From Bacteroidia bacterium (GTDB taxonomy: Bacteria; Bacteroidota; Bacteroidia; JANWJV01): 64,000 nt of DNA. Shown here piece after piece: positions 7,881-47,198 of the stretch (position 1 is its first letter; every line of letters starts with the position of its first letter). Location of the stretch: the NCBI GenBank assembly GCA_025451785.1, contig JANWJV010000007.1, positions 1,596-65,595 on the forward strand, written 5' to 3'. Under the pieces are notes generated by a model. It was given only the letters and a program-made list of their open reading frames with translations. It was not told where the DNA came from and did no database searches. A program made the position numbers and the translations under genes.

Positions 7881-10535
7881 ATGGAGATCCCCAAAACATA
7901 CGACCCACGGTCAACGGAAGACAAATGGTATGCCTACTGGCTCAGCCACAAGCTCTTCCGTTCGGTACCCGATAAGCGCGAGCCTTATACTATTGTGATC
8001 CCCCCTCCCAATGTAACAGGGGTGCTTCACATGGGCCATATGCTTAACAATACCATTCAGGATGTGCTCATCCGCAGGGCCCGTATGCTTGGCAAGAACG
8101 CCTGCTGGGTGCCCGGCACCGACCACGCTTCCATCGCCACCGAAGCCAGGGTGGTAGCCATGCTGAAAGAAAAAGGCATTAAGAAGACCGACCTCAGCCG
8201 TGAGCAGTTCCTGGAATACGCCTGGGAATGGAAAAAAAAATACGGCGGCATCATCCTCAAGCAGCTCGAAAAACTGGGCGCCTCGGTTGACTGGGACCGC
8301 ACCCGCTTTACCATGGACGAGGACATGAGCGAGGCGGTGATCAACGTGTTCATCGACCTTTACAACAAAGGACATATCTACCGCGGCGTGCGCATGGTAA
8401 ACTGGGACCCCCAGGGGCTCACCGCGCTTTCGGATGAAGAAGTTATTTATAAAGAAGTAAGCTCTAAGCTGTATTATGTAAAGTACAAACTGGAAGGAGG
8501 CAATGACGAATGGATCACCATTGCCACTACACGTCCGGAAACCATTTTGGGCGATACGGCCGTTTGTGTTCACCCTGCCGATGAAAGGTATAAGCATCTC
8601 AAAGGCCGCTGCTGCATCATACCTATTGTGAACCGCAGCGTGCCCATCATCTTCGACGAGTACATCACCATGGAGTTCGGTACCGGCGCCTTAAAAGTAA
8701 CTCCCGCACACGACATCAACGACTACAACCTGGGCATCAAGCATGGGCTGGAGATCATTGATACCATCGCGCCCGACGGCAAGATGAGCGCCGCCGCGAA
8801 GTTCTACGTAGGCGAAGACCGTTTCGCGGTACGCAAGAAGATCGCCAAGGATCTGGAAGACATGGGGCAGATCGTGAAGGTGGAAGATATTCAAAACAAA
8901 GTAGGCCGCTCTGAAAGGACCGACGCGGTGATAGAGCCCAAGCTGAGCATGCAGTGGTTCCTCAAGATGGAGGAGATCAGCAAGCCCGCCCTTGAAAATG
9001 TTCTGAACGGAAACGTAAGACTTATTCCCGATAAGTTCATCAACACCTATAAGCACTGGATGGAGAACGTGCACGACTGGTGCATCTCGCGTCAATTGTG
9101 GTGGGGACAACGCATTCCGGCATGGTATGATGATAAGGGAAATTTTGTGGTGGCGAAGACACACGAAGAGGCGCTCGCGAAGTATAACGTCAAACATCAA
9201 ACGTCAAACGTCGAACAATTGAAGCAGGACGAAGATGTAGTAGACACCTGGTTCAGCGCATGGCTGTGGCCTATCAGCGTATTCGACCCCAAAGTGTTCG
9301 GAGCCGACAAGAGCTACAAAGGCAACGACGACATCAATTACTATTATCCCACCAATGATCTTGTTACCGCTCCGGAGATCCTTTTCTTTTGGGTGGCGCG
9401 CATGATCATTTCGGGATACGAGTACAAACAGGAAAAACCTTTCAGCAATGTTTACCTCACTGGCATCGTACGCGATAAGCAAGGCAGGAAGATGAGCAAA
9501 TCGCTGGGCAATTCACCTGACCCTATCGAGCTGATGGAGAAGTACGGGGCTGACGGTGTTCGCGTGGGCATGCTCTTATGCTCTCCTGCCGGCAACGATC
9601 TTCCCTTTGACGAATCGTATTGTGAGCAGGGAAGGAATTTCTCCAATAAGATATGGAACGCTTTCCGCCTTGTGGCTGGATGGCAGGTAGATGACAAAGC
9701 ACAACAGCCGGAAGCGAACAAAACAGCTTGCCAGTGGTTCGATTCCAAACTGAGCGCCGAGCTGGAGAACATCAACGACCTGTATTCAAAATACCGCATT
9801 TCGGAAGCGTTGATGGCCAGCTACAAACTGGTGTGGGATGATTTCTGCGCCTGGTACCTTGAGATGATCAAGCCGGAGTTTGTCGACGGCGTTTCGAAGC
9901 CTATCGATAAGTCCACCTATGAAACCACCATCGCTTATTTTGAAAAGATATTGAAGGTGCTTCATCCCTTTATGCCCTTCATCACCGAAGAGATATGGTC
10001 GCTCATTAGAAAAAGGGCGGAGAAGGACTGCGTGATGATATCGCAATGGCCCGCTGCCGCAGCGAGGGACGAAAAACTGCTTTTGGTAGTTGAAACACTT
10101 AAGGAACTGGTAGCCGCTATCCGTAACCTTCGTCAGCAAAAGAACATTTCCCCCAAGGAAAAACTGGAAGTACATGAAGTGGGTGATACCAACCGCAAGG
10201 CTTGCCGCCTCGACGCGCTGGCGATAAAGCTCGCGAACCTCAGCGAATACAAATACACTTCGGCAAAACTTGAGGGTGCCTACAGCATTAACATCGGTAC
10301 ACTTGAATTTTATGTTCCGCTTTCGCAGAATATCAACGTGGCGGAAGAAAAGGAGCGCCTGCTGAAGGACCTCGACTATCAAAAAGGCTTTCTTGTTTCG
10401 GTACAGAAAAAGCTCGCCAACGAACGCTTTGTTCAGAATGCCAAGCCGGAAGTGATAGCGGTAGAGAAAAAGAAAGAGGCTGACGCGGAAGCGAAGATCA
10501 AGACAATAGAAGAGCAGTTGGCCGCGCTAAAATAA
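7881..10535 (+). CDS. valS: valine--tRNA ligase
   Basis: 884 aa. HIGH-type [21 protein letters not shown], and a C-terminal coiled coil. Confidence 0.97.
9187..9214 (+). repeat. heptanucleotide tandem array (AACGTCA-like x4) inside valS
   Basis: AACGTCA AACATCA AACGTCA AACGTCG, encoding ..[10 protein letters not shown].. Confidence 0.85.
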
Positions 10536-10536
10536 G

Positions 10537-11964
10537 TTAACGCTGATTTTGCTTCTCCCCTACTCCTTGCTTTTTATCCTTAGGTTTCGCGATGCGAAAA
10601 AGTGTTTCCTCAATGGCAGGGGGACTGGCCGAAGGGGCTTTCTGGATAAAATAACCTTTGTCGTCAACTAAAAAATACGTGGGCACCATTCGTATCTCAT
10701 ACGTTTGGAGCAGCGACTCATCATCACAATACAATTGCGTCCAATCATATTTAGGGTTCTTGGCAAGAAAGGCCTTCATCTCCTCTTTTGTTTTGTCGGT
10801 GCAAATGCTAACAAACACGATCTTATTGCCGTACTTCTTCCGGTAGTCCTGCATCAATTTCATTTCCTGCAGGCAGGTGTTGTTGGCGCTCGACCAGAAA
10901 TTGAAATACACATGCTTCCCTTTAAAGCCTGACAGCTTCACTTCTTTCCCCTGAAGGTCCTTCAGTACGATCTCAGGTGCTTTTTTGCCGGCAACGATCC
11001 TCGGAAATACAGCCAGCATGTTTTCCGCGATCTTGCGGTGCTCCTGCACCTTTCCTTTTGCGCCTATCTCTTCAAGGATAGTGATGATTCCTTCGGTACT
11101 GTAGCGGCCTGAATAATAGAATTCCCAAAGGCCCTTTAGCAGCACCAGCTCACGCAGGGTATCGTTCTTCAGCTGTTTATCGAGGGCCATTGTTTCCATC
11201 ATAGCAGCATACTCCGGTTTGCCATTTACGATGGAAGGGATCCTTGCCCCGGCATCGGTAAGCGTAAATTCCTGCAAGCGCCCTTTAAAGAACTCATTGA
11301 AAAAGTTCATGTATTCCAGGTTATCGTAATAAATGGGTCTTGAAACAAGATAATCGCGCGCGATGTTGTTGGAGCCGCGGCCGAAGGTGTTCTCTTCAAT
11401 GGCAGCGATGGCGTATTCAACATGCGTATGGAAATAAGGCTTGCGAACCTTTACATAGTGTTCTTTGATGGCGAGCTTAAAGGAATCCATCTTCGCCCTA
11501 GAGCGCTTGGCGATGAAGTACTGGTAATAACGGCTCCAGAACTTATCGAACTGCCGGTTATAATCGATGATCAGCGCGTTGATGTCGAGAGAGTCTTTAA
11601 GATAGAACTCAAGGTTCACATTGTATTCGGGCCTGCTGGAGGAAGCGGAAGTGCTGTCGGAAACAGGCGGAACGTACAAGGTATATAACCCGCCAGGCTC
11701 CGCGAAGAAATTGCCCTTTACGTTACCTATCTTAAGGAACAACGGACGGATGTGATCAAGCGTAACATCCAGGTTAAAGTTGCCGGCAGTATCGAGCGTT
11801 GCCTTGCCCAATGATCTTTCACGGAAAGTGATAAGGTCGGTATAGGTATATACGGTGAGCTCCTTTCCGCGATAGGAATTTCCATTGCCCCTTATCTGCG
11901 TCTTTTGCGCGGAGAGGTTCTGAACAAATAAAACAAGAGAAAAAACGAGCGCGGCGATCCTCAT
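10537..11964 (-). CDS. thioredoxin-fold (TlpA/redoxin-like) protein with degenerate active site
   Basis: Signal peptide. The C-terminal thioredoxin-like domain reads FNFWSSANNTC where the paralog at 23866-24960 has FWASWCGPC. Confidence 0.7.
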   Translation of the reverse strand: MRIAALVFSLVLFVQNLSAQKTQIRGNGNSYRGKELTVYTYTDLITFRERSLGKATLDTAGNFNLDVTLDHIRPLFLKIGNVKGNFFAEPGGLYTLYVPPVSDSTSASSSRPEYNVNLEFYLKDSLDINALIIDYNRQFDKFWSRYYQYFIAKRSRAKMDSFKLAIKEHYVKVRKPYFHTHVEYAIAAIEENTFGRGSNNIARDYLVSRPIYYDNLEYMNFFNEFFKGRLQEFTLTDAGARIPSIVNGKPEYAAMMETMALDKQLKNDTLRELVLLKGLWEFYYSGRYSTEGIITILEEIGAKGKVQEHRKIAENMLAVFPRIVAGKKAPEIVLKDLQGKEVKLSGFKGKHVYFNFWSSANNTCLQEMKLMQDYRKKYGNKIVFVSICTDKTKEEMKAFLAKNPKYDWTQLYCDDESLLQTYEIRMVPTYFLVDDKGYFIQKAPSASPPAIEETLFRIAKPKDKKQGVGEKQNQR

Positions 11965-12425
11965 TTGAGGTCCACCCCCCGGGGGACGAAGGCAGAAGCG
12001 TTCCCTTTGTTCCGGATAATATCCCTGATGATAGTTGAACTGATGGCGGAGTATTCCGGCAGCGAAAGGATGAAAACGGTCTCGGTCTCGGAGGCCATGG
12101 CCCTGTTCATTTGCGCAATGCCCCGCTCGAACTCAAAATCGGCGGAGGTGCGCAGGCCCCGGAGTATATAGTTGGCTTTTATCTTTTTGCAGAAATCGAT
12201 GGTAAGACCTTCGTAGGTCTCGATCCTCACCTTTTTTTCGCCGGCAAATGTTTTGGCGATCCATTCCTTGCGTTTTTCGATCGGGAAGAAATAGTTCTTG
12301 GTGGAGTTGATACCGATGGCGATCACCAGCTCATCGAACAAAGGCAGGGCGCGGCGGATCACCGACTCATGGCCGATGGTGATGGGATCGAAGGAACCCG
12401 GGAATACCGCTATCTTACTGCTCAT
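11961..12425 (-). CDS. coaD: pantetheine-phosphate adenylyltransferase
   Basis: 154 aa. FPGSFDPITIGH nucleotidyltransferase motif and ISSTIIRD near the C-terminus. Confidence 0.95.
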   Translation of the reverse strand: MSSKIAVFPGSFDPITIGHESVIRRALPLFDELVIAIGINSTKNYFFPIEKRKEWIAKTFAGEKKVRIETYEGLTIDFCKKIKANYILRGLRTSADFEFERGIAQMNRAMASETETVFILSLPEYSAISSTIIRDIIRNKGNASAFVPRGVDLK

Positions 12426-12966
12426 TTGTTTGCTTTTTACCGAAAATACTAAAATTTATCTTGCCGTACTCCCGCCTCTCCAAAAAGTGTTCCTCCTTTG
12501 AAAGCGAGGTGCGCGAAGAGTGTTCTATGATAAGCATACCACCCTCCTCCAGCAATCCTTTTTCAAACACCAGCGCGCGCAATCCAGGATAATTGTCGTA
12601 CTCAAAAGGCGGGTCCGCAAAAATGAGGTCATACCGCCCGGTGGTATTTTTAAGGAACGCTGTGGCCTCCCCTTTTATTGCATGGATCGCCTCCAGCTTT
12701 ATTGTTTCCGCCGTTTTCTTTATAAAGGCTACACAGTTATAGTGGCTGTCAACAGCTGTTACCGCGGCGGCTCCGCGGGAGGCAAACTCATAGGCGATGC
12801 TGCCTATTCCGCTGAACAGGTCCAGCACCTTCAACCCTTCAAAATCAATGCGGTTGTTCAGCACGTTGAACAATCCTTCCTTCGCAAAATCGGTGGTAGG
12901 GCGCACCGGCAAGTTCTTCGGCGCTATGATGTTCCTTCCCTTATGACTCCCGCTGATGATCCTCAT
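12415..12966 (-). CDS. rsmD: 16S rRNA (guanine966-N2)-methyltransferase RsmD
   Basis: MRIISGSHKGRNI...PVRPT and the FADPPF motif. The ATG at 12966 is preferred over the TTG at 12978. It forms an ATGA overlap with the upstream gene. Confidence 0.9.
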   Translation of the reverse strand: MRIISGSHKGRNIIAPKNLPVRPTTDFAKEGLFNVLNNRIDFEGLKVLDLFSGIGSIAYEFASRGAAAVTAVDSHYNCVAFIKKTAETIKLEAIHAIKGEATAFLKNTTGRYDLIFADPPFEYDNYPGLRALVFEKGLLEEGGMLIIEHSSRTSLSKEEHFLERREYGKINFSIFGKKQTNEQ

Positions 12967-20063: not shown

Positions 20064-21929
20064 ATGAAAAGACTTTTACCTGCACTCGCATTATTGGTCG
20101 CCACGAACAGCCTCGGACAAGGCTTCGGAACAACAGCTGCCAACTGGCCCATACCCGTGGGCGGCGTTACCAACGGCGGTAATAACTTAGGTTATTTTCT
20201 TACGGGACAGACCGTCGCTTCTTCCTACGATATAGGTTCCAAGAACTGGGTGGTGATGGACATCAACGGCGACGCGAAGATGGACCTCGTGATCACTTCC
20301 GAAAAAATGTCGAATGGATCAACCACTGTTTACAGCCCTACCAGCACCCCTTATTGGAAAGTGTACCTGGGCACTGGTACTGCATTCTCGTCCACGGTTA
20401 CTAACTGGTCTATTCCGGCGGGAGGGGCTACCCTGGGAGGAACGAATCTCGGTTTTTATCTTACGGCCATCGTAACAGCCTCTTCCTACGACGTTGGCTC
20501 CACCAATTGGGTGGTGATGGATATGAACGGTGATGCGCGCCCTGACCTGGTGATCACTTCCGAAAAAATGTCGAACGGCAATACCACTGTGTACAGTCCC
20601 ACCAGCAATCCTTACTGGAAAGTGTACCTCAATACCGGAACATCCTTTTCTTCGATCCCTACCAATTGGCTGGTGCCTGTAGGCGGGCAGATCAATGGAG
20701 GGACCAACCTCGGTTTTCGTTTCACCGCCAACACCTCAGCCTCTTCCTATGATATAGGCACTACCAACTGGGAGCTATTAGACCTTAACGCCGACAACAG
20801 GCCTGACCTGGTGATGTACTCTGAAAAAATGTCGAACGGCAATACCACTGTTTACAGCCCAACCAGCAGCCCTTACTGGAAAATATACCTCAATACCGGC
20901 AGTGCCTTTTCATCGTCGGTTACCAATTGGCCGGTACCGGTTGGCGGGCACATCAGCGGCGGGGTGAACCTGGGCTTCCGGTTCACCGCTTCATCATCGG
21001 CGCCTTCGTACGATATCGGCACCACCAACTGGGAGCTGGTTGACATGAACGGCGACAAGCGGCCCGACCTATTGGTGTACTCTGAAAAAATGTCGAACGG
21101 CAACACCACCATTTACAATCCCACCAGCAGCCCCTACTGGAAGATCTACCAAAATACAGGAACCGGTTTCCAAACTTCATCAAGCAATTGGTCGGTGCCG
21201 GTGGGCGGACATATATTCGGGGGAGCGAGCATGGGCTACCGCTACACCGCATCCACTATTGCGGCTTCCTACGACATCGGCTCCACTAACTGGGAGTTAG
21301 TAGACATGAACGGTGATGCCAGGCCCGACCTGGTGATCAACTCCGAAAAAATGTCGGGCGGGCTCACCACTATATACAGTCCCAGCAGCAATCCGTACTG
21401 GAAAGTGTATTTCAACACCGGCAGCAACTTTGCCGGAGCTTCCAGCAACTGGCCCGTGCCTGTAGGTGGTATTATCAGCGGGGGCAACAACCTGGGATTT
21501 TTTCTTCCGTATGCTACCACAGCCACTACCTACGACCTGGGATCGCACAACTTCCAGGTATTTGACATTAACGGCGACACGAAGCCCGACCTGGTGATCA
21601 CTTCCGAGAAAATGTCGGGCGGCACCACGGTGTATAGTCCCGCCAACAACCCTTACTGGAAAGTATACATCAATACAGGGCTAAGTTCCGTAGCGGAACA
21701 AGCAGGCAGCGACTTTAGTGTTTATCCCAACCCTTTCAACGACAGGATAACATTAGAATGCGATAAAGGAACTGCTGTTTTATACAACGTGCTTGGAGCA
21801 AAAGCAGGCGAATGGCAGCTTTCAGCAGGCAGCAACGAGATCAAAACAGGGTCGTTGCCGCGAGGCATCTATTTCATAACGATCAATACCGAAACCATAT
21901 CCTTCAGCAAAAAGCTGGTAAAGGAATAA
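20064..21929 (+). CDS. secreted FG-GAP-like repeat protein (6 x 87 aa) with T9SS CTD
   Basis: Signal peptide MKRLLPALALLVATNSLGQG at the ATG at 20064 (the track start at 19920 is an extension). Six units contain DxNGDxxPDLV...PYWKVY.NTG. CTD VYPNPFNDRITL...GIYFITI. Confidence 0.8.
   Translation: MKRLLPALALLVATNSLGQGFGTTAANWPIPVGGVTNGGNNLGYFLTGQTVASSYDIGSKNWVVMDINGDAKMDLVITSEKMSNGSTTVYSPTSTPYWKVYLGTGTAFSSTVTNWSIPAGGATLGGTNLGFYLTAIVTASSYDVGSTNWVVMDMNGDARPDLVITSEKMSNGNTTVYSPTSNPYWKVYLNTGTSFSSIPTNWLVPVGGQINGGTNLGFRFTANTSASSYDIGTTNWELLDLNADNRPDLVMYSEKMSNGNTTVYSPTSSPYWKIYLNTGSAFSSSVTNWPVPVGGHISGGVNLGFRFTASSSAPSYDIGTTNWELVDMNGDKRPDLLVYSEKMSNGNTTIYNPTSSPYWKIYQNTGTGFQTSSSNWSVPVGGHIFGGASMGYRYTASTIAASYDIGSTNWELVDMNGDARPDLVINSEKMSGGLTTIYSPSSNPYWKVYFNTGSNFAGASSNWPVPVGGIISGGNNLGFFLPYATTATTYDLGSHNFQVFDINGDTKPDLVITSEKMSGGTTVYSPANNPYWKVYINTGLSSVAEQAGSDFSVYPNPFNDRITLECDKGTAVLYNVLGAKAGEWQLSAGSNEIKTGSLPRGIYFITINTETISFSKKLVKE
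20142..21680 (+). repeat. six tandem ~261-bp coding repeats
   Basis: 87-aa period running from NWPIPVGG to PYWKVYxNTG. The boundaries are approximate. Confidence 0.8.
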
Positions 21930-22005: not shown

Positions 22006-23886
22006 ATGAAAAAGCTATTAACCATCGCAGGCGCATTTTTTTCGTTCAGTAGTTTCGGGCAAGGCTTCCCCTCCACTCCCATTAACTGGTCAACACCTGT
22101 TGGCGGCTATTACATAAGTGGTACGGGCTATGGCTACAACTCCACCTTTCGGAGCACCAATCAAACTGTGTACGCCAACAACCAGAACTGGAGCACCATG
22201 GATATGAACGGCGATGGAAAGGCCGACCTCGTGGTTTGCGCACAAGCCAATGTAGATGGTGAAACACCTAAGATATTCAACCCTTCAAGCCCCTATTGGA
22301 AGGTTTACCTTGGCAACGGTACCGCTTTCGCTTCAAGTCCTATTAATTGGCCAACACCCGTCGGCGGCATGTATATCAGCGGCGTGAATTATGGATACAA
22401 TACAACATCGTACAGTACCAATCAAACTGTTTACGCCAATAACCAGAACTGGAGCACCATGGACGTGAATGGCGACAAGAAACCCGACCTCGTGGTGTGC
22501 GCGCAAGCCAATGCCGATGGTGAAACGGCGAAGATATTCAACCCTTCAAGCCCTTACTGGAAAGTTTACCTGAATACAGGTTCAGGATTCTCTTCCAGCG
22601 TTACCAATTGGTCAACACCTGTCGGCGGTATGTATATCAACGCAGTGAACTACGGTTACAATGCTGCTTCGTACAGCACTAATCAAACTGTTTACGCCAA
22701 TAACCAGAACTGGAGCACCATGGATATGAATGGCGATAATAAACCCGACCTCGTTGTGTGCGCGCAAGCCAATGCTGATGGTGAAACGGCGAAGATCTTC
22801 AGCCCTTCAAGCCCCTACTGGAAAGTGTACCTAAGCACAGGTTCAGGATTCTCTTCCAGCGTTACCAATTGGTCAACACCTGTGGGCGGCATCTACATCA
22901 ACGCGGTGAACTATGGCTACAACCAAACTTCGTACAGCACTAATCAAACAGTGTACGCCAATAACCAGAACTGGAGCGCTATGGACATGAACGGCGATAA
23001 CAAGCCTGACCTGGTGGTTTGCGCTCAAGCAAATGTTGATGGAGAAATGGCGAAGATCTTCAGCCCCTCGAGCCCTTACTGGAAGGTTTACATCAATTCA
23101 GGTTCGGGATTCTCTTCCAGTGTCACCAATTGGTCAACACCTGTGGGCGGAATATACATCAGCGGAGTAAATTATGGACTCAATTCAACTGCCTATATCG
23201 CCAATTTCACTGTTTCCGCCAATTCACAAAACTGGAGCACCCTCGACATGAACGGCGACAATAAACCCGACCTGGTAGTTTGCGCTCAAGCAAATGTTGA
23301 TGGAGAAATGGCGAAGATCTTCAGCCCCTCGAGCCCTTACTGGAAAGTTTACATCAATTCAGGTTCTGGATTTTCCTCTTCTGTTACCAATTGGTCAACT
23401 CCCGTTGGCGGCAAGTACATCAGCGGAGTAAACTATGGGCTCAGTTCAACTGACTATACCGCCTCTTTCACTGTTTCCGCCAATTCACAAAACTGGAGTA
23501 CCATGGACATGAACGGCGACAATAAACCTGACCTGGTGATATGTGCGCAAGCCATCGCTGACGGGCAGGTGCCGAGCATTTTCAGTCCTTCATCAAACCC
23601 TTATTGGAAAGTGTACCTTAATAACGGGCTTATCGGTGTGAACGATCTCAATGAAGAAGCTATTGCGATCTATCCCAACCCTTTCAACGACAGGATAACA
23701 TTGGACTACAATAAGGGAACTGCAACCTTATACAATATATTGGGCGAGGTGAACGGCACCTGGCAGCTGACCGAAGGCAAGAATGAATTAAATGTTGCCG
23801 ATATAGCCGCCGGGATCTATATCCTGCAACTGATAAATGAGCAGGGTAAGGTGGCAACAAAAAAGTTACTTAAGGAGCTCCGCTAG
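22006..23886 (+). CDS. secreted FG-GAP-like repeat protein (6 x 87 aa) with T9SS CTD, paralog of 20064-21929
   Basis: Signal peptide MKKLLTIAGAFFSFSSFGQG at the ATG at 22006. Six units contain DMNGDNKPDLVVCAQAN.DGE..KIF.PSSPYWKVY. CTD IYPNPFNDRITL...GIYILQL. Confidence 0.8.
   Translation: MKKLLTIAGAFFSFSSFGQGFPSTPINWSTPVGGYYISGTGYGYNSTFRSTNQTVYANNQNWSTMDMNGDGKADLVVCAQANVDGETPKIFNPSSPYWKVYLGNGTAFASSPINWPTPVGGMYISGVNYGYNTTSYSTNQTVYANNQNWSTMDVNGDKKPDLVVCAQANADGETAKIFNPSSPYWKVYLNTGSGFSSSVTNWSTPVGGMYINAVNYGYNAASYSTNQTVYANNQNWSTMDMNGDNKPDLVVCAQANADGETAKIFSPSSPYWKVYLSTGSGFSSSVTNWSTPVGGIYINAVNYGYNQTSYSTNQTVYANNQNWSAMDMNGDNKPDLVVCAQANVDGEMAKIFSPSSPYWKVYINSGSGFSSSVTNWSTPVGGIYISGVNYGLNSTAYIANFTVSANSQNWSTLDMNGDNKPDLVVCAQANVDGEMAKIFSPSSPYWKVYINSGSGFSSSVTNWSTPVGGKYISGVNYGLSSTDYTASFTVSANSQNWSTMDMNGDNKPDLVICAQAIADGQVPSIFSPSSNPYWKVYLNNGLIGVNDLNEEAIAIYPNPFNDRITLDYNKGTATLYNILGEVNGTWQLTEGKNELNVADIAAGIYILQLINEQGKVATKKLLKELR
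22084..23626 (+). repeat. six tandem 261-bp coding repeats, units 4/5 near-identical
   Basis: A 68-nt identical run at 23017-23084 and 23278-23345, offset exactly 261 nt. Confidence 0.85.
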
Positions 23887-28099: not shown

Positions 28100-28567
28100 A
28101 TGAAGATCCATTTGTGGTTTGTGGTTTGTGGTTTGTCGTTGTTGTTTGTTGCCTGCGACAGCAGAAGAATTTACGAAGAGAACAGAGAAATTCCCGAGAC
28201 CGGCTGGGATGTAAAGAACAAGATCAACTTCGAGGTGGACATCAAAGACACCCTCATGCTGCACAACTTCTACATCAACGTGCGCAATTCCGACGGTTAC
28301 CCTTTCAGCAATCTTTTCCTTTTCATCAAGACCACCAATCCCGATGGCTACGCCAAGATGGACACTTTTGAAGTGGTGCTGGCTGATGACAATGGCAAAT
28401 GGACCGGCAGCGGCATCGGCGACCTTTGGGACAACCAACGCCTTTGGAAGACCAATGTGCGTTTTCCCAAGTCGGGCAAATACACTTTTACCTACGAGCA
28501 GGCCATGCGTAACGAGATATTGCCGCTGATATTGGATGTTGGATTGAGGATAGAGAAGGTTCAGTAA
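28100..28567 (+). CDS. gldH: gliding motility lipoprotein GldH
   Basis: About 155 aa. Lipobox LLFVAC-D. NVRNSDGYPFSNLFLFI and YEQAMRNEILP...VGLRIEK match my recollection of the GldH pattern. The ATG at 28100 is preferred over the TTG at 28094. Confidence 0.8.
   Translation: MKIHLWFVVCGLSLLFVACDSRRIYEENREIPETGWDVKNKINFEVDIKDTLMLHNFYINVRNSDGYPFSNLFLFIKTTNPDGYAKMDTFEVVLADDNGKWTGSGIGDLWDNQRLWKTNVRFPKSGKYTFTYEQAMRNEILPLILDVGLRIEKVQ
28111..28138 (+). repeat. heptanucleotide tandem array (TTTGTGG x3 + TTTGTCG) in gldH signal-peptide codons
   Basis: Read directly. It starts 11 nt after the gldH ATG. Confidence 0.9.
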
Positions 28568-28569
28568 AC

Positions 28570-28597
28570 AGTAGGCGGTAGGCAGTAGGCAGTAGGC
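28570..28597 (+). repeat. heptanucleotide tandem array (AGTAGGC x4, one G variant) in gldH-gltX spacer
   Basis: AGTAGGC GGTAGGC AGTAGGC AGTAGGC. It ends 4 nt before the gltX ATG. Confidence 0.9.
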
Positions 28598-28601
28598 AAT
28601 T

Positions 28602-30146
28602 ATGGAAAATAAAAGAGTTAGATTACGTTTCGCGCCAAGTCCCACAGGGGGATTGCACATGGGCGGAGTGCGTACTGCTTTGTTCAATTATCTTTTCGCG
28701 AAGAAACACGGCGGGGATTTTCTTCTCCGCATCGAGGACACCGACCAAACACGTTACGTAAAAGGCGCTGAAGAATACATTGTTGCGGCGCTTAATTGGA
28801 CCGGAATAAAAATAGATGAAGGTGTGAGCGTGGGCGGTCCGCATGCGCCTTACCGCCAGAGCGAGCGCAAAGAACTGGGCATCTATAAAAAATACGCCGA
28901 CCAGCTCATTCAAAGCGGGCATGCCTATTATGCTTTTGATACTGCGGAAGAACTTGACGCCATGCGCAAGCGTTTAGAAGCCGCCAAGGTGGCCGCGCCG
29001 CAGTACAACGCGGTATCGAGGCAGAACATGCGCAATTCGCTGACGCTTTCGGAAGACGAAACAAAAAAACTACTGGACGCGGGAACCCCTCATGTGATCC
29101 GCTTGAAAGTTCCACGCAACGAGGAGATCCGTTTCCACGATATCATCCGCGGATGGGTGGTGGTGAACTCTTCGCAGGTGGATGATAAGGTATTGCTCAA
29201 GAGCGATGGCATGCCCACCTATCATTTGGCACATATTGTTGACGACAAGCTGATGGAGATCTCGCACGCAGTGCGCGGCGAAGAATGGCTGCCTTCGGCT
29301 CCTGCCCACATCCTCATTTACCGTTACCTGGGCTGGGAAGAAACGATGCCGCAGTTGGCGCATTTGCCGCTCATTCTGAAACCTGACGGCAACGGCAAGC
29401 TCTCCAAGCGCGATAAGTCAGGACTGCCCATGTTCCCCTTGAACTGGACCGACCCCAGCACCAACGAAAGTTATATAGGTTACCGCGAAAGCGGATTTTT
29501 CCCTGAGGCCTTCGCCAATATGCTGGCCTTCCTGGGCTGGAACCCCGGTACAACGCAGGAATTGTTTTCGATGGATGAATTGATACAAGCTTTCAGCTTC
29601 GAGCGCGTAAATAAATCGGGCGCCAAGTTCGATCCGGAAAAAACCAAGTGGTTCAACCAGCAGTATTTGAGGAAGAAGGCGGATAGTGAGCTTGCTGCTT
29701 TGTTCGCTCCTGTAGTAGAGGAAAAAACAAATGGGCAAGGAGCAAAGGGCAAAGGGCAAGACTATATTGAGAAGGTTTGTAAGCTGATAAAAGAGAAAGC
29801 CCATTTCGTAAGCGAGTTTTGGGAGATGGGAAAGTTCTTCTTTATTGCTCCTGATGCCTACGATGCCGATGTGATAAAGAAACGCTGGAACGAAGGTTCG
29901 GCAAAATTCATAGCGGCGCTGGCCACCGAATACAAGAACATGGGCGACTTTACCGCCGCGGAAGCCGAAAGAGTATTCAAGGCCACCGCTGAAAACACCG
30001 GCACCAATCCCGGGCAGGTAATGCAGTTGTTTCGTGTTTGCCTTAGCGGAATGGGCGGAGGCCCTGTACTATTTGAAATGACAGAACTGCTTGGTAAGGA
30101 CGAAGTAGTGAAACGCCTCGAAACCGCCGTTCAAAAGATAAAGTAA
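28602..30146 (+). CDS. gltX: glutamate--tRNA ligase
   Basis: 514 aa. RFAPSPTGGLHMGG (HIGH) and KLSKR (KMSKS). Confidence 0.95.
   Translation: MENKRVRLRFAPSPTGGLHMGGVRTALFNYLFAKKHGGDFLLRIEDTDQTRYVKGAEEYIVAALNWTGIKIDEGVSVGGPHAPYRQSERKELGIYKKYADQLIQSGHAYYAFDTAEELDAMRKRLEAAKVAAPQYNAVSRQNMRNSLTLSEDETKKLLDAGTPHVIRLKVPRNEEIRFHDIIRGWVVVNSSQVDDKVLLKSDGMPTYHLAHIVDDKLMEISHAVRGEEWLPSAPAHILIYRYLGWEETMPQLAHLPLILKPDGNGKLSKRDKSGLPMFPLNWTDPSTNESYIGYRESGFFPEAFANMLAFLGWNPGTTQELFSMDELIQAFSFERVNKSGAKFDPEKTKWFNQQYLRKKADSELAALFAPVVEEKTNGQGAKGKGQDYIEKVCKLIKEKAHFVSEFWEMGKFFFIAPDAYDADVIKKRWNEGSAKFIAALATEYKNMGDFTAAEAERVFKATAENTGTNPGQVMQLFRVCLSGMGGGPVLFEMTELLGKDEVVKRLETAVQKIK
29733..29760 (+). repeat. heptanucleotide tandem array (GGGCAAA-like x4) inside gltX
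   Basis: GGGCAAG GAGCAAA GGGCAAA GGGCAAG, encoding GQGAKGKGQ. Confidence 0.85.
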
Positions 30147-33391: not shown

Positions 33392-34171
33392 ATGGCAAAA
33401 CCCCTCCGTACCCGCTTCGCCCCTACCCCCAGTGGTTACCTGCACCTTGGCAATGCCTTTAATTTCCAGCTTACCTCGCTGGAGGCTAAAAAGGAGAATG
33501 GGACCATACTCCTTCGGATCGATGACCTGGACGCGGCACGGGTGGAGCAGCAGTATGTAGACGATATCTTCAACACCCTGCAATGGCTGGGCCTGGATTG
33601 GGATGAAGGTCCGCGCGATAGCACCGAACATTTCAGTAAGTTCTCACAAGAGCTTCGCAAAAGCCGTTATCATGAATTGATAGGACAGCTGAAAAACGAC
33701 GGGCATCTATTTGCCTGTACCTGTTCCCGCAAGGAGGTCCTCGAGAAAAATAAAAGCGGGCGTTATTCCGGTACCTGCCAGCATAAGAACCTGCCTTTTG
33801 ATACACCCGATGCGGCCTGGCGCCTGAAAAGGGATGACGATGAAATGGCTTACCCCATCATCCGCCGCCGCGATGGTATCCCCTCCTCTACAATAGCCTC
33901 TTTAGCCGACGATACCGACCAGCAGATCAACCTTATCGTTCGTGGCACCGACCTGTTGCCCGTCACGAAGCTGCAATTGCACCTGGCCGAATTGTTAGGC
34001 TTAAAGGAATTCGGGAAGACGCGCTTCATCCATCATCCTTTATTGCAGGACAAAGAAGGAAACAAGCTCAGTAAATCAGCGGGAAGTTTGTCGTTAAAGG
34101 CAATGAGGGAAAGCGGGATTACCGCAGAGGAGGTTTATAGGCTATTCGAAAATTGGCAAAAGGGCAAATAG
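33392..34171 (+). CDS. gluQ: tRNA glutamyl-Q(34) synthetase (GluRS paralog lacking anticodon-binding domain)
   Basis: 259 aa from the ATG at 33392. RFAPTPSGYLHLGN and KLSKS motifs. A Cys cluster CTCSR...GTC is present. Confidence 0.85.
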   Translation: MAKPLRTRFAPTPSGYLHLGNAFNFQLTSLEAKKENGTILLRIDDLDAARVEQQYVDDIFNTLQWLGLDWDEGPRDSTEHFSKFSQELRKSRYHELIGQLKNDGHLFACTCSRKEVLEKNKSGRYSGTCQHKNLPFDTPDAAWRLKRDDDEMAYPIIRRRDGIPSSTIASLADDTDQQINLIVRGTDLLPVTKLQLHLAELLGLKEFGKTRFIHHPLLQDKEGNKLSKSAGSLSLKAMRESGITAEEVYRLFENWQKGK

Positions 34172-34183
34172 GCAAAGGGCAAT
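34154..34183 (+). repeat. imperfect GGCAAA-type 7-8-nt tandem array at gluQ 3' end
   Basis: TGGCAAA AGGGCAAA TAGGCAAA GGGCAAT. It spans the gluQ stop and forms the left arm of the terminator palindrome. Confidence 0.7.
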
Positions 34184-34202
34184 TGCATGTTTGCCTATTT
34201 GC
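34164..34202. terminator. bidirectional hairpin between convergent gluQ and TraB/GumN genes
   Basis: Perfect 13-bp inverted repeat GCAAATAGGCAAA / TTTGCCTATTTGC with a 13-nt loop that contains the palindrome GCAATTGC. Confidence 0.6.
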
Positions 34203-34214
34203 AAATTTGCGTGT

Positions 34215-38528: not shown

Positions 38529-38534
38529 ATTGTT

Positions 38535-41575: not shown

Positions 41576-41661
41576 GCGGTTATCTATATATACACAATAT
41601 TACTAAATGTTTGGGGATAAATACTAACGGCAAAAGGGCCGCTTTATTATAATTTAGCGGT

Positions 41662-42354: not shown

Positions 42355-42411
42355 TCCCCCCTGTACCTTTTTCCCCTTCTTTCAGTTATATTTACATCAG
42401 CCCCCTGAAAC

Positions 42412-44307: not shown

Positions 44308-44817
44308 TTACCAGTGCCCCGCGTAATCCAGCGAGAGCCCCGAGCTCTCCTTCAGGAAATTGTATTTAGTTGCCGTGATCTGCCGTATGTGCAGGTGATC
44401 ATGCGCCAGCCAGTTGGCCAGGAGGAACTCCGCGCTGATGGGACCTACCTTAGGATGCTGGTAAAAACTTTTCCAGTTGGGATTCGAAAGCGAACGCAGC
44501 CACTTCACCGATTCAGTTCGTTCATCCAAAAATGCCGCGATCTTCTTCTCATACTCCTGCTCCATGTATTTTCTTTCTTTCACCCAGGCAACAGGATCTA
44601 TCTTCGGCATGGGATCATTGGGACTGAACAAAGTATGCTTTACACGAGCCCGAAAATCTTCACGCTCTTCATCATACAAGTGACAAGCGATCTCCAGAAG
44701 CGACCATTTTTCAGGGTTTTGTTTCCAGAGATGTATTTCAGAAGGCACACCGGAAAGCAATGCACGGAAAGTGGCGGCGTTGCTTTCGAGAGTGGTGATG
44801 GTGAGGGAGTAGTTCAT
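44308..44817 (-). CDS. DinB family protein
   Basis: 169 aa. His-containing helices IACHLYDEE and WLAHDHLHIRQ are typical of the DinB four-helix bundle. Confidence 0.75.
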   Translation of the reverse strand: MNYSLTITTLESNAATFRALLSGVPSEIHLWKQNPEKWSLLEIACHLYDEEREDFRARVKHTLFSPNDPMPKIDPVAWVKERKYMEQEYEKKIAAFLDERTESVKWLRSLSNPNWKSFYQHPKVGPISAEFLLANWLAHDHLHIRQITATKYNFLKESSGLSLDYAGHW

Positions 44818-44853
44818 GCTATCAAAAATAACGGAAAAAGCTATTGGAGAATC

Positions 44854-46284
44854 TCACGGGGCTCCTTCCGCCGCATTATTCTCCATTGACTCAACAACTT
44901 TCAGCCTTAGCTTGTCGACAGGTGCTTCTTCGAGCTTAAGTATTATAATTTGCTTGTCAGTAATTACGACTTGCTTCGTGGCAAAACAGGGTTTGTTATT
45001 CTTATAACCCGTTGCAACTATTACGGCCTCAGCTCCCACAGGCAGTTTCGTTTTCTCATGATCTCCATGAGTGAATGAGAACGTGCTGTCTTTCTTTTGA
45101 TAACCAGGGATATATATCCCTTCCTTCTCAAACATGATCCTAATGAAGATCACATCCATGTCGCGGTGGTTTTCAATTTTAGTCACCATATCAATGATCT
45201 TACTTCGAGAATCATTGCTAAGCCTATCTATATTCGCCCAGCCCAAGTTCTTCATTGAGAAAAGATAATTGGCATTAGGGTCTTCTGAAAAGTAGTTAAG
45301 TCCTGCTGCCTGGTTTTGTTTTGTATTACCACCAAAGGTAGCTGCAACTAATTGGTTACCATTTTGCCTCCACTGCTTGCCATCAATCGAATCTATTTTT
45401 ATCCAATCAACTTCTTCTTGTTGTACCTTTTCTTCTATAGCAACAACCGAATTATTGCCTACCCCCATCGGCTGCGGATCCACCCAATTCAAACGCCCGT
45501 TCTTATCCTTCACTCCTTCCCACACTTTCATATCCTTCAGCACTTTCTTCGAGGGAACGGCCACGCCCACTGTTTTCTTATCGGCAAGCTTCAAGGGGCC
45601 GCTTTCATTCACAGCGTTCACACAGATCATTCCTCCGCTCTCCAATGGTTTGCCGTTAGTGGTCGTTACCAGGTCGCCCAATACCATGTCCTTCGGAACA
45701 AGTGCCTCTTTAAACTCGATCGTTACCGGGCCATTCACCGACTGGCCCTCCGCGTTAGCGAAAGTGTTCTTAGGAATATGCAACACAACCCCCGACTTGC
45801 TCTTGAGCGTTGTGTCACGGCCTCCGTTGATCTTGAAGATCTGCTTCGGCAATTGCTCCGTGCCAAACACGTTATGATAAAGTTCGGCAGCGGCCTTTTT
45901 TGAAGCTACCGGTTGTTCAACAACAGGAAGACTGTCCTTCATTTGTTCTGTCTTTACCTCAGTCGTCTTCGCGTCGGCCTGAACTTTAGGTTCCTCCATT
46001 GGATTAAAGTACAAGAGCGCCGATGCCACCAAAACGATGGCCGCGCCACCTATCCCGCCCTTCATAATATTTTGTCCCTGCCTGTACTTTCTTGCCGCCT
46101 GTTGCGCTTGCTGCCTTAAAGCTGCTTGTTCTAATCCTTTCATCAACTCCTTCTGTATCATCATGTCTTCTTTTAATCCCGCGTTGCTTTCCATCTCTTT
46201 TTCAAAAGCTTCTCGCTCCACCTTTTTCATGCTTCCCATGAGGTAGTGCTCTATCTTTTCTATCAGTTCCAGTTCCTTGCGCAT
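44854..46284 (-). CDS. membrane-anchored protein downstream of ECF sigma (putative anti-sigma factor)
   Basis: Helical N-terminus, a single TM (GGIGGAAIVLVASALLYF), and a ~380-aa extracytoplasmic domain. The stop of the sigma gene lies 10 nt upstream. Confidence 0.45.
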   Translation of the reverse strand: MRKELELIEKIEHYLMGSMKKVEREAFEKEMESNAGLKEDMMIQKELMKGLEQAALRQQAQQAARKYRQGQNIMKGGIGGAAIVLVASALLYFNPMEEPKVQADAKTTEVKTEQMKDSLPVVEQPVASKKAAAELYHNVFGTEQLPKQIFKINGGRDTTLKSKSGVVLHIPKNTFANAEGQSVNGPVTIEFKEALVPKDMVLGDLVTTTNGKPLESGGMICVNAVNESGPLKLADKKTVGVAVPSKKVLKDMKVWEGVKDKNGRLNWVDPQPMGVGNNSVVAIEEKVQQEEVDWIKIDSIDGKQWRQNGNQLVAATFGGNTKQNQAAGLNYFSEDPNANYLFSMKNLGWANIDRLSNDSRSKIIDMVTKIENHRDMDVIFIRIMFEKEGIYIPGYQKKDSTFSFTHGDHEKTKLPVGAEAVIVATGYKNNKPCFATKQVVITDKQIIILKLEEAPVDKLRLKVVESMENNAAEGAP

Positions 46285-46294
46285 GTCCTTTTCT

Positions 46295-46852
46295 TTAAGA
46301 TGCCTGTACTTTTTTCATTTGCTTCAGCCGGTTACGTGCCGCTTCCAGGCATTTGTATTTCTGGTTCTTGGCCGTGTTCTCCGAGTTGTAGCCCATTTTC
46401 ACCGCGATGGCTTTCAATTTCATTGTTCCAGAGTAAAAGAGCAGCAAAAGTTCCCGGCACCGTTCGCCCAGTCCTTCGATCACCTGCCTGGCCATGCCCA
46501 GCTTCTCCTCTTCCTGCCTCCATTCCGTCATGCTCTCCTCTTCCGCTTTCGCCAGGCCGCTGTCGATCCCTTCGGCCGGGAGCTTCTGCCTCTTCTTCAG
46601 TTCATCCTTCCACAAAAAGCGGCAAACACTATAGAGGTAGGTGCTGAGCTGCGCCGTTAACGTAAAGTCTTCCGCGTTCACCTTGCGGTGTACCACCAGC
46701 AATGCTTCCTGGAAAATATCCTCGGCATCTTCCTTCCTCCCGCCTTTTGAAAGCACCATTTTCCTGATCATCGGAAAATGTTTGTACAAAGCCAGGAAGG
46801 CTTTGTCGTTCTTCCCGCTCCTCAACTGTTCTATGATCTGCTGATCGGTCAT
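46295..46852 (-). CDS. ECF-type RNA polymerase sigma-70 family factor
   Basis: 185 aa. Region 2 is DAEDIFQEALLVVHRK...YLYSVCRFLW. Region 4 is LLLLFYSGTMKLKAIAVKMGYNSENTAKNQKYKCL. Confidence 0.85.
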   Translation of the reverse strand: MTDQQIIEQLRSGKNDKAFLALYKHFPMIRKMVLSKGGRKEDAEDIFQEALLVVHRKVNAEDFTLTAQLSTYLYSVCRFLWKDELKKRQKLPAEGIDSGLAKAEEESMTEWRQEEEKLGMARQVIEGLGERCRELLLLFYSGTMKLKAIAVKMGYNSENTAKNQKYKCLEAARNRLKQMKKVQAS

Positions 46853-46973
46853 TCGTGCTGCTTTTATAATGTTAATGGTCGAAAAAGGAAAAGGTCACCC
46901 TCCCTAAAGAAACATTTTTCATGAACTAAGACGCATAAAAGGCAAAAGGATGGCATCTTGGGCCAATTTTCGG

Positions 46974-46981
46974 TATTTTTG
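46974..46981 (+). promoter_or_regulatory. candidate -7 box (TATTTTTG) for tRNA-Arg
   Basis: Exact TAnnTTTG match, 41 nt upstream of the tRNA 5' end. Confidence 0.4.
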
Positions 46982-47022
46982 CGCTCCATCGCCCTTCGAA
47001 GCTTTAGCGAAGAAGGGCAATT

Positions 47023-47096
47023 GGTCCCGTAGTTCAACTGGATAGAATGACAGATTCCGGTTCTGTTGGTTGGGGGTTCGACTCCCTCCGGGACCG
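47023..47096 (+). tRNA. tRNA-Arg (CCG)
   Basis: Hand-folded. Acceptor GGTCCCG/CGGGACC, anticodon stem ACAGA/TCTGT with loop TTCCGGT, T arm GGGGG-TTCGACT-CCCTC. CCA is not encoded. Confidence 0.9.
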
Positions 47097-47119
47097 CATG
47101 AACAGTGTGAGTTTGAGAG

Positions 47120-47154
47120 TGAGAGCGAGTCAATTGCTCCGCTCTCATTCTTTT
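47120..47154 (+). terminator. rho-independent terminator after tRNA-Arg
   Basis: TGAGAGCG / CGCTCTCA 8-bp stem followed by TTCTTTT. Confidence 0.7.
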
Positions 47155-47163
47155 ATGACCAAT

Positions 47164-47198
47164 TCCTAAATCCTAAATCCCAAATCCTAAATCCTAAA
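47164..47198 (+). repeat. heptanucleotide tandem array (TCCTAAA x5, one C variant) upstream of EamA gene
   Basis: TCCTAAA TCCTAAA TCCCAAA TCCTAAA TCCTAAA. It ends 5 nt before the ATG at 47204. Confidence 0.9.

Follow-up and report, generated by a model that had tools for sequence, protein, structure and literature searches.

The six heptanucleotide tandem arrays of the window, by which the whole stretch of 64,000 nucleotides analysed is meant, are ordinary members of a class of repeats that is widespread in Bacteroidia and of the STRR or heptanucleotide long SSR kind. Arrays of this class are tied, both physically and phylogenetically, to small cassettes in which an S23p gene is flanked by arrays, often as inverted arms. 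The explanation favoured here, which we consider probably correct, is that the six belong to a heptamer class homogenised on the DNA level, tied to S23p cassettes and tolerated in genes.

Six heptamer arrays in the window

Tandem Repeats Finder and direct reading located all six arrays where the sequence-only reading had placed them, although they are imperfect, with 4-5 units and 80-93% matches (Table 1). The TTTGTGG array consists of three perfect units followed by degenerate ones. The AGTAGGC array takes up the 34-nt spacer between gldH and gltX, beginning 2 nt past the gldH stop and ending 4 nt before the gltX ATG (28602), and the TCCTAAA array stops 5 nt short of the start codon (ATG, 47204) of a small EamA-family gene. 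RNA folding gave no structure for the former and a minimum free energy of 0 for the latter. The stop codon of the gluQ-like gene (TAG, 34169-34171) lies within the GGCAAA-type array. The gene names were backed by Pfam matches (GldH_lipo, with tRNA-synt_1c in the gluQ-like gene and EamA in the ORF starting at 47204), and the identities of ValS and GltX by orthologue searches.

The arrays had been described as clustered and as unrelated in sequence. The density in the window (9.4 per 100 kb) is that of the genome average (8.6 per 100 kb), so the clustering disappears. The units are only partly unrelated: with 30 arrays, the AGTAGGC family is the second largest in the genome, and the two GGCAAA-type arrays have a common unit, which is also found in a hairpin family and in one S23p cassette. 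The TCCTAAA unit family comprises 10 arrays genome-wide.

Table 1. Heptamer arrays and associated hairpin arm in the window.
Feature	Position	Strand	Copies and matches	Setting	Detected by
AACGTCA-type array	9186..9216	+	4.4 copies, 87%	inside valS	Tandem Repeats Finder, direct reading
TTTGTGG-type array	28111..28149	+	5.7 copies, 87%	gldH signal peptide	Tandem Repeats Finder, direct reading
AGTAGGC array	28569..28598	+	4.3 copies, 91%	gldH-gltX spacer	Tandem Repeats Finder, direct reading
GGGCAAA-type array	29728..29759	+	4.4 copies, 80%	within gltX	Tandem Repeats Finder, direct reading
GGCAAA-type array, period 7-8	34150..34182	+	about 4 copies	left hairpin arm; contains gluQ-like stop	
Right hairpin arm	34183..34210	+		GCAATTGC apex, then inverted TTTGCC-type units	
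TCCTAAA array	47164..47199	+	5.1 copies, 93%		Tandem Repeats Finder, direct reading

A genome-wide class with a period of 7

The 3.04-Mb genome of this uncultured member of the Bacteroidia, the assembly of which is 85% complete, contained 262 period-7 arrays where about 0 were expected, versus 121, 59 and 22 arrays of periods 6, 8 and 9. Exact period-7 arrays of at least three units numbered 46, and none occurred in any of three 5th-order Markov simulations; for periods 5, 8 and 9 the real genome gave 3, 3 and 0, which is near chance. The comparison with other periods and a simulated control, proposed in the earlier reading, thus showed period 7 to be over-represented, and its notion of a genome-wide class with common period and copy number was supported. 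The typical array has 4-5 units and the median length is 31 nt. Since period and copy number are common to the entire class, a common generating process is likely. The units fall into 87 classes, most of them with 1-5 members each; the five largest contain 111 arrays, and AATCAAC is the largest family (32 arrays). An inverted partner within 90 nt was absent for 210 of the 262 arrays, so that most are solo.

Beyond this genome, 91 other Bacteroidia loci centred on valS (1.42 Mb) contained 105 period-7 arrays versus 20, 26 and 13 for periods 6, 8 and 9, and independent metagenome contigs (655 kb) contained 39 versus 8, 8 and 4. A few dominant unit families recur in scattered genomes; TGCCTAC was amplified in 45 of 301 Bacteroidia genomes, belonging to many families, versus about 0 for the reversed control pattern. 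No strain-level relatives of the present genome were found. The statement that no equivalent class had been described in Bacteroidota was too strong. Three-copy heptamers are the only over-represented SSR class in Bacteroidetes, with a positive '7n3' median (Huang & Mrazek 2014, PMC4060949, Table 2), and TAACTGA and other heptamer arrays are reported from five Bacteroidetes (MacGregor 2015, PMC4679880). In the present genome, TAACTGA did not appear in the list of the 60 most frequent unit classes.

Location of arrays relative to genes

Arrays internal to genes made up 35% of those in the genome, compared with 82% of random 30-nt segments. The remaining 65% (18% expected) included intergenic arrays (29% versus 6.4% expected) and arrays straddling a stop codon (20% versus 1.6% expected). 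The nearest stop codon was overlapped by 63 arrays and a start codon by 23, and another 22 ended 1-9 nt upstream of a start. Within genes, 88 of 96 arrays were in a stop-free orientation; both orientations were found, without bias of the sense strand (52 versus 49 of 88). The first 75 nt of ORFs harboured 26 arrays, including that of gldH, and about 18 of these encode signal-peptide h-regions as judged by reading of the translations. In GldH, a lipoprotein, the array itself codes for the hydrophobic core of the signal peptide (HLWFVVCGLSLLFV). Some of the arrays at 5′-ends lie in genes for surface or secreted proteins, as in the gldH signal peptide and in other lipoproteins.

Arrays survive only at tolerant sites: in intergenic spacers, at the ends of genes, in the cores of signal peptides and in variable loops of essential enzymes. 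Their placement tracks tolerance rather than gene function. A role in the spacing of translation starts, as suggested earlier, found no specific support: stops are equally frequent sites and the orientation is without polarity.

Array hotspots in valS and gltX

The valS array codes for part of a variable surface loop (ValS residues about 431-441). Heptamer arrays were found in this loop in 18 of 78 ValS orthologues, in a common register and with differing units, and in 17 of the 77 aligned sequences; the latter included that of the present genome, whose own array was absent from that Tandem Repeats Finder set. A scan of the 77 valS genes for four-unit windows with at least 80% periodicity returned 25, all of period 7 and confined to two loops, as opposed to 0, 1, 1 and 0 windows for periods 5, 6, 8 and 9. 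The main hotspot comprised 13 arrays in a single register, with a lag-7 identity of 0.76 within species and 0.52 between species at the same positions. In all 38 species of the common loop length, taken without selection, the corresponding values were 0.49 and 0.41, other lags giving 0.27. Successive units are read in different reading frames, and selection on the protein therefore cannot explain their likeness; the arrays arise and are homogenised on the DNA level and not via protein-sequence selection. The hotspot arrays switch unit between species and are not linked to the dominant unit families.

Conservation as ordinary coding sequence in distant orthologues had been named as a point against a distinct class. 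A third outcome was obtained for valS, where position and 7-nt period are conserved in distant orthologues and the unit sequence is not. Both in-gene arrays had also been read as insertions of about 9 aa. Orthologues that carry an array in the valS loop and those that do not have loops of equal length, which contradicts an insertion there, whereas orthologue alignment identified the gltX array as a lineage-specific insertion in a variable loop, of 4-5 aa instead of about 9. Two other genomes (G004 and G055) carry heptamer-array insertions at the same gltX site.

Arrays and S23p cassettes

Six S23p genes (PF05635/TIGR02436, four-helix bundle) were identified above the curated cut-offs in the genome, none of them in the window. 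They sit between protein-coding genes; all six have an array within 100 nt and three are bracketed by inverted arms. Among 30 other Bacteroidia genomes, 28 of 30 S23p genes had an array within 300 nt and 11 of 30 cassettes had inverted arms of the same unit. Eleven genomes free of S23p contained 8 arrays in 1,008 kb, fewer than of period 6 (n = 23), versus 32 arrays in 800 kb for eight S23p-bearing genomes (Mann-Whitney p = 0.0016, for 19 genomes that are not phylogenetically independent). Array density did not scale with S23p copy number, as genome G283 combined 2 genes with 8 arrays per 100 kb, and G060 11 genes with 1 array.

On contig C96, an S23p cassette has arms made of AGTAGGC-family arrays. 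Its S23p has its three closest homologues in three other families, all flanked by (A/G)GTAGGC arrays, and seven distant paralogues were flanked by arrays of other units. The (A/G)GTAGGC arm unit was kept while the adjacent protein diverged to 45-55% identity. In four families, the unit of the arms varies together with the S23p subtype. Neither G052 nor G057, both rich in TGCCTAC, has a close homologue of the S23p of AGTAGGC type, and no S23p cassette was found for the AATCAAC family in the 85%-complete assembly.

The GGCAAA-type array at the gluQ stop belongs to a hairpin (34150-34210) with a predicted RNA folding energy of -27.7 kcal/mol on the + strand (z = -4.9) and -24.7 kcal/mol on the - strand (z = -6.5). 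The array and the 5′ arm of an S23p cassette on contig C121 are homologous, and the junction GCAATTGCATGTTTGCC is common to the window hairpin and that cassette, in which it follows the S23p gene stop. These shared sequences identify the hairpin at the gluQ stop as a copy of an S23p cassette that lacks the gene, with the array as one of its arms. About 10 hairpins in the genome have their arms and the GCAATTGC apex in common, and these are the only array elements with a shared core.

Origin of the arrays

In the favoured explanation, new arrays would be born when copying runs out of register, through slippage or misaligned repair, in intrinsic steps of 7 nt, and the same misalignment would maintain the likeness of units while length is unchanged. 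The S23p cassettes would either seed this array process or depend on it, and the arrays in valS, gltX and gldH would be tolerated passengers rather than switches. Evidence to the contrary is that most arrays are solo, that 87 unit classes face only six S23p genes, that array density does not follow S23p copy number, that the AATCAAC family is without a cassette in the 85%-complete assembly and G052 and G057 without a close AGTAGGC-type S23p, and that no enzyme able to make or move arrays was identified. A more speculative extension, which we hold to be improbable, is that every S23p subtype, as a pentamer, reads its own heptamer sequence-specifically and that the hundreds of arrays with a given unit make up a network recognised in trans, serving regulation or the spread and homogenisation of repeats. 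If such readers exist, five subunits matching about five units would explain the sharp preference for 4-5 units (about 31 nt) here, in Xanthomonas and in Nostoc, and the old puzzle of STRR and heptamer repeats would gain a protein partner.

Alternatively, the arrays may be plain replication-slippage microsatellites whose 7-nt preference stems from the replication machinery, as proposed by Mrazek (2007), with S23p cassettes landing or persisting in the same spacers without any causal role. The large number of unit classes with mostly solo arrays, the arrays in coding loops, which can never have housed a cassette, and the absence of a dose relation to S23p copy number would all fit, as would the heptanucleotide excess reported for many phyla (PMC4060949; PMC4679880, citing Mrazek 2007). 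However, period 7 is hardly in excess in the S23p-free genomes, subtype and arm unit co-vary, and few dominant unit families recur in scattered genomes. The copy number also falls steeply above 5 units (123, 92, then 8 arrays), unlike the geometric decay of stepwise slippage, and we regard this alternative as unlikely.

Functional cis-elements, that is putative RNA or DNA sites for a repeat-reading protein (pentameric S23p, a cold-shock protein or S1) that tune starts, stop coupling or termination, are suggested by the strong enrichment at gene boundaries, the amplification of TGCCTAC and the arm unit conserved despite S23p divergence. Paired arrays also form strong hairpins between convergent genes, and the five chains found in each crystal entry of S23p relatives, like the homopentamer described in published work (PMC4990558, citing Lin 2006), compare with the 4-5 array units. 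Against these observations stand the presence of both orientations, the small size of most unit classes and the valS hotspot, where the unit changes without a tie to the dominant families, and the reading appears quite doubtful as a whole.

Miniature transposable elements of the MITE/REP type, mobilised in trans by a transposase, would account for the common arms and apex of about 10 hairpins, the excess of inverted over direct same-unit pairs within 100 nt (29 versus 5) and elements directly 3′ of stop codons, but are very improbable, as each of the 111 arrays that make up the five largest families has unique flanks, with no conserved termini or target duplications visible, arm unit and copy number vary from copy to copy, solo and in-frame coding arrays misfit cut-and-paste insertion and no dedicated transposase is linked. 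Contingency loci, in which gain or loss of units switches genes such as gldH, are equally hard to credit: the arrays are out of frame, so that a single-unit change within valS or gltX does shift the frame as had been stated, and some lie at the beginning of genes with surface or secreted products, but valS and gltX, which are essential, contain such arrays too and an OFF state there would be lethal, the valS loop length is constant among species and placement follows tolerance. Phase-variable loci rely on a tract that is long and perfect, in a gene that is dispensable and usually encodes a surface protein; the tracts here are short and imperfect, and switching in essential genes by imperfect four-unit tracts is unlikely.

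Comparison with known systems

The cassettes resemble the ORF-containing intervening sequences (IVS) of 23S rRNA in Coxiella and Leptospira (Warrier et al. 2016, PMC4990558), in which an S23p ORF lies inside terminal inverted repeats forming a stem of about 28 bp, as long as four heptamers. A PF05635/TIGR02436 ORF and, in three of the six own cassettes, enclosure by inverted repeats were seen here as well. The IVS are located in 23S rRNA, from which RNase III excises them, whereas the present cassettes lie between protein-coding genes and have arms of tandem heptamers or octamers. In the window, the element at 34150-34210 matches the C121 cassette in arms and junction but contains no ORF. Avd of diversity-generating retroelements is a distant relative of S23p proteins, and NF033474 (Avd) matched two of the six at 34-37 bits, under the curated cut-off of 80 bits. 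A diversity-generating retroelement was rejected, as a search of the 85%-complete genome for reverse transcriptase (PF00078) gave no match and there was no template/variable repeat pair.

Heptanucleotide long SSRs (LSSR 5-11; Mrazek, Guo & Shah 2007; PMC4060949) are alike in that heptamers specifically are over-represented among SSRs, and the surveys proposed polymerase slippage with a 7-nt step. Those surveys are counts only and contain no anatomy, orthologous hotspots, concerted evolution or associated gene. The STRR of heterocystous cyanobacteria share the 7-nt units, short arrays, several dispersed families, hundreds of copies and mainly extragenic location. They differ in phylum and unit sequences, and about one third of the present arrays are in frame within genes; the link to S23p cassettes and hotspots in orthologous genes are absent from the STRR literature as far as examined. 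Since the host is an uncultured member of the Bacteroidia and the units differ from named STRR, STRR sensu stricto was rejected, and the arrays are STRR-like, with period 7 over-represented and dispersed families mostly outside genes or at their edges.

The TAACTGA repeats of Beggiatoaceae, Cyanobacteria and five Bacteroidetes (PMC4679880) likewise consist of 2-6 heptamers just upstream of starts or after stops, one unit has a scattered phylogenetic distribution, and further heptamers are present in those spacers of the Bacteroidetes. A single unit is concerned there and many families here, where a translational role is not indicated. Finally, the GGGAATC and GGGGA(C/T)T repeats of Xanthomonas and Nostoc (Rehm et al. 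2015, PMC4692102) are also genome-wide, prefer about four units and are enriched between co-directional ORFs, near starts and stops. The four units were attributed by these authors to the G-quadruplex; the units in the present genome are mostly A/T-rich and incapable of forming one, and yet display the same preference.

Heptamer arrays across the genome and in other Bacteroidia

All six heptamer arrays reported in the sequence-only reading (in valS, in the gldH signal peptide, before the gltX ATG, inside gltX, at the gluQ stop and before the ATG at 47204) were found by Tandem Repeats Finder (TRF) and by direct reading of the window. They are imperfect, with match levels of 80-93%; the gldH tract continues in degenerate units after three perfect ones, and the GGCAAA-type array at the gluQ stop switches between periods 7 and 8. 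The identities of ValS and GltX were backed by orthologue searches, and Pfam matches were obtained to GldH_lipo, to the tRNA-synt_1c catalytic domain (GluQ-like) and, for the ORF at 47204, to the EamA family. None of the window arrays was listed as a classical hairpin-plus-T-run terminator by a consensus terminator scan. The six had been taken to be clustered, but they amount to 9.4 per 100 kb against a genome mean of 8.6 per 100 kb; the window arrays are a sample of a genome-wide class and no cluster. Two long arrays of 261-nt period, within two neighbouring large ORFs of the window, have no relation to this class.

Locations of hairpin, cassette and long-period repeat features. Positions refer to the window unless a contig is named (C, contig; G, another sampled genome).
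Feature	Position	Composition	Strand	Basis
gluQ-stop hairpin	34150-34210	array 34150-34182 and inverted TTTGCC-type run 34183-34210	both	predicted fold
261-nt-period array	20436-21404	3.7 copies, 74-84% matches for the two arrays		TRF
261-nt-period array	22153-23554	5.4 copies		TRF
S23p cassette arms, 8-nt unit	C82:2245-2313 with 2669-2701	AATTAGCG x8.2 and inverted TCGCTAAT x4.1
S23p cassette arm, 8-nt unit	C121:10438-10505	CAAATGGG x8.5
S23p gene of locus L316	G295:C59:227-583	arms AGTAGGC x9.4 and AGGGAGT x12

The assembly (3.04 Mb in 172 contigs, 85% complete, GC 49.7%) gave 230 TRF rows of period 7 with at least 3.5 copies, compared to 70 of period 6, 49 of period 8 and 10 of period 9. Exact arrays of at least three units numbered 46 for period 7 and 3, 3 and 0 for periods 5, 8 and 9, and three 5th-order Markov simulations contained no such period-7 array. 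This over-representation relative to other periods and to simulations supports the proposal of a class that spans the genome, and a shared generating process is likely. At three or more copies, 262 period-7 arrays belong to 87 unit classes, the largest being AATCAAC (n = 32); others are AGTAGGC (n = 30), CCATTAA (n = 24), AATCAAA (n = 15) and TCCTAAA (n = 10). Arrays have a median length of 31 nt in this and in other genomes alike, with a steep drop above approximately 36 nt. Close to contig ends, at distances of up to 100-300 nt, period-7 arrays are enriched about twofold (6 versus 3.0 expected and 16 versus 8.9 expected), and some contig breaks may have been caused by the assembler at arrays. 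In paralogous genes (contigs C29, C103 and C110; C1, C102 and C105), AATCAAC/AATCAAA-type arrays are found again and again at the matching position, in one set within a PYTYxWSNG...QSSINNLQS module that is repeated in very large proteins and in the other, comprising five paralogues, about 800 nt into the gene. These may be old arrays duplicated together with their genes; alternatively, they may be coding sequence in which the period is only mimicked.

No genome of the same family was among those sampled, the closest full-length ValS being 80% identical; the relatives revealed by a metagenome scan reached at most 80-85% identity in GltX, and exact-protein look-up found no other assembly with an identical protein. 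The heptamer-array class is not private to this genome but general in Bacteroidia. In 1.42 Mb around valS from 91 other loci, drawn from uncultured Bacteroidia, Pedobacter, Mucilaginibacter, Daejeonella, Chitinophagales and Fluviicola, 105 arrays had period 7 and 20, 26 and 13 had periods 6, 8 and 9, and the corresponding counts in 655 kb of unrelated metagenome contigs were 39, 8, 8 and 4. TGCCTAC, the other strand of AGTAGGC, was found as three units with at most two mismatches in 45 of 301 Bacteroidia genomes, with high counts in scattered families; the reversed control pattern gave approximately zero.

Array hotspots in valS and gltX

In an alignment of 77 ValS sequences (76 orthologues and that of the genome under study), 17 have a period-7 array at the site of the window array (residues 431-441), with units that all differ. 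A second site at residues 198-207 carried 11 arrays in nine species, and only four arrays lay outside both sites. Four-unit valS windows with at least 80% periodicity numbered 25 for period 7, all in the two loops, and 0, 1, 1 and 0 for periods 5, 6, 8 and 9. The loop is equally long in species with and without arrays, so the valS array is not the 9-residue insertion that it had been taken for.

Thirteen of the hotspot arrays share one register when anchored on the conserved QDEDV codons. Their lag-7 identity within species was 0.76 and their between-species identity at matching positions 0.52; across every species whose loop has the common length (n = 38) the values were 0.49 and 0.41, with 0.27 at other lags in this unselected set and 0.24-0.33 for lag 7 in control valS stretches. 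Simple decay of an old array would lower both identities together and does not fit, since identity within species exceeds that between them. Because successive units also lie in different frames, the pattern points to homogenisation at the DNA level, or to repeated rebirth in one register, at constant length. Two loci of uncultured Bacteroidia, L088 and L016, encode ValS proteins that are 95% identical, yet their 35-nt hotspot loops are 57% identical in nucleotides (43% differ), so that turnover at this site is very fast; lag-7 identity is 0.79 in one species (clear array) and 0.32 in the other (no clear array). In four loci (L058, L072, L079 and L092) the hotspot holds a short CPHCGSK-type cysteine motif and no long variable loop, and the array-hosting loop may have replaced a zinc-knuckle.

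The internal gltX array corresponds to 4-5 extra residues relative to most orthologues. Heptamer-array insertions occupy the matching site in two other genomes, one of them of about 37 aa and composed of TCTGCCT x10 and TCTTCCA x4. Upstream of gltX, arrays with differing units were found in eight lineages.

Placement of the arrays

By a crude gene call based on codon usage and covering 92% of the genome, 35% of the arrays are deep inside genes compared to 82% of random 30-nt segments, 29% are intergenic (6.4% expected) and 20% run across a stop codon (1.6% expected). The nearest stop codon is overlapped by 63 arrays and a start codon by 23, with a further 22 ending 1-9 nt before one. A 7-nt unit passes through three frames within three units, so that a unit containing a stop triplet leaves no frame open; the stop-free orientation is used by 88 of 96 in-gene arrays. 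Within the first 75 nt of ORFs there are 26 arrays, of which approximately 18 specify a hydrophobic signal-peptide core by manual reading of the translations, gldH being one example; no syntenic gldH was present in the sampled loci. If arrays were seeded everywhere, selection would leave just such a distribution.

The arrays are not MITE-like copies, as the flanks of those in the five largest families (n = 111) are unique. A stop-codon safety net or a fixed polarity fails on the 88 intergenic arrays, where stop-containing units number 52 in sense and 49 in antisense, and no bias in purine content was found in intergenic arrays. Inverted arrays 300-2,500 nt apart enclose no cargo besides S23p, only ordinary genes with arrays at both ends (SDR, flavodoxin-like, UbiA-type and T2SS-F-like genes among them).

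Association with S23p genes

Profile search identified six PF05635 genes in the genome, all TIGR02436 'four helix bundle protein' (S23p). An array of period 7 or 8 lies within 100 nt of all six, and inverted same-unit arms surround three; the arm units include AGTAGGC, CCATTAA and TTTCATA, ranking 2, 3 and 6 among the families. In 30 other Bacteroidia genomes, surveyed at one locus each, an array was present within 300 nt of S23p in 28, on both sides in 17 and as inverted same-unit pairs in 11, and array density was 2.1 per kb near S23p genes versus 0.41 per kb farther off. PF05635 is present in 237 of the 301 sampled genomes. Eleven S23p-free genomes yielded 8 period-7 arrays in 1,008 kb of sampled DNA, fewer than the 23 of period 6, versus 32 period-7 arrays in 800 kb from eight S23p-bearing genomes (Mann-Whitney p = 0.0016, the genomes not being independent). 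The three proteins most similar to the AGTAGGC-armed S23p, at 55%, 50% and 45% identity and from three other families, are all flanked by (A/G)GTAGGC arrays, whereas seven distant S23p paralogues in those genomes are flanked by other units (Fisher p = 0.008). Arrays go together with S23p genes (19 genomes, 36 cassettes), and the protein subtype co-varies with the arm unit. Counting against the tie, most arrays are solo and most unit classes are without a cassette; the matching S23p subtype is missing from two TGCCTAC-rich genomes, and array density showed no dose relation to the number of S23p copies.

Given the cassette arms of 8-nt unit, the 7-nt step is favoured and not absolute. In L316, a locus of the AGTAGGC-armed subtype, the S23p gene contains two in-frame TGA codons and is likely a pseudogene; its arms are still long and clean. 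The S23p-relative structures 2rld and 2gsc have five chains each, and a homopentamer is cited for S23p relatives (PMC4990558); beside the preference for 4-5 units, such a putative pentameric state is suggestive.

The gluQ-stop element and related hairpins

The gluQ-stop array forms the left arm of a strong hairpin, predicted by RNA folding between convergent genes. This arm equals the 5' arm of the S23p cassette on C121, and the apex GCAATTGC followed by TGTTTGCC is the sequence directly after the S23p stop there, so that the element is a gene-less copy of the cassette. About ten more intergenic hairpins (on C43, C95, C101, C137, C162, C170 and others) are likewise built of a GCAAA-type heptamer arm, the GCAATTGC apex and an inverted TTTGCC-type arm. 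On C170 an AGTAGGC left arm is joined to a TTTGCCA right arm, hence arms of different families can combine. Same-unit array pairs at most 100 nt apart are inverted in 29 cases and direct in 5.

Origin, meaning and comparison with known repeats

Arrays would be made and homogenised by out-of-register copying with a 7-nt step, selection would restrict them to tolerant sites, and S23p cassettes may be bound to the process as source, dependant or reader. A G-quadruplex explanation is not general, since the 4-5-unit preference is present in units unable to form one. Frameshift switching by the arrays, as raised in the sequence-only reading, is unlikely. Synthesis by reverse transcriptase (telomerase- or DGR-like) was rejected, no such enzyme being found in the 85%-complete genome. 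Heptamer arrays in valS, gltX and signal peptides should not be annotated as frameshift switches or assembly errors. The orthologous in-register valS hotspot and the covariation of S23p subtype with arm unit deserve follow-up; three handles, the valS hotspot, the S23p link and the non-G4 units, make it testable what produces heptamer arrays and what reads them.

To our knowledge, heptanucleotide repeats in cyanobacteria, Xanthomonas, Beggiatoaceae and some Bacteroidetes have been noticed for decades without a mechanism. The arrays described here are a new instance of this already known kind of repeat. The class had been thought undescribed in Bacteroidota, but it is on record: among the SSR patterns of Bacteroidetes only '7n3' has a positive median (Huang & Mrazek 2014, PMC4060949, Table 2), and TAACTGA and further heptamer arrays are known in five Bacteroidetes (MacGregor 2015, PMC4679880), a paper in whose summary of Mrazek 2007 heptanucleotides are the commonest long SSR. 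Over-representation of heptamer x3 peaks at 1.27 in psychrophiles, is down to 0.48 in mesophiles and falls to zero in hyperthermophiles (PMC4060949, Table 3), and the process may be temperature-dependent. The S23p cassettes have the layout of the Coxiella intervening sequence in 23S rRNA, in which an S23p ORF lies within a stem of about 28 bp (PMC4990558).
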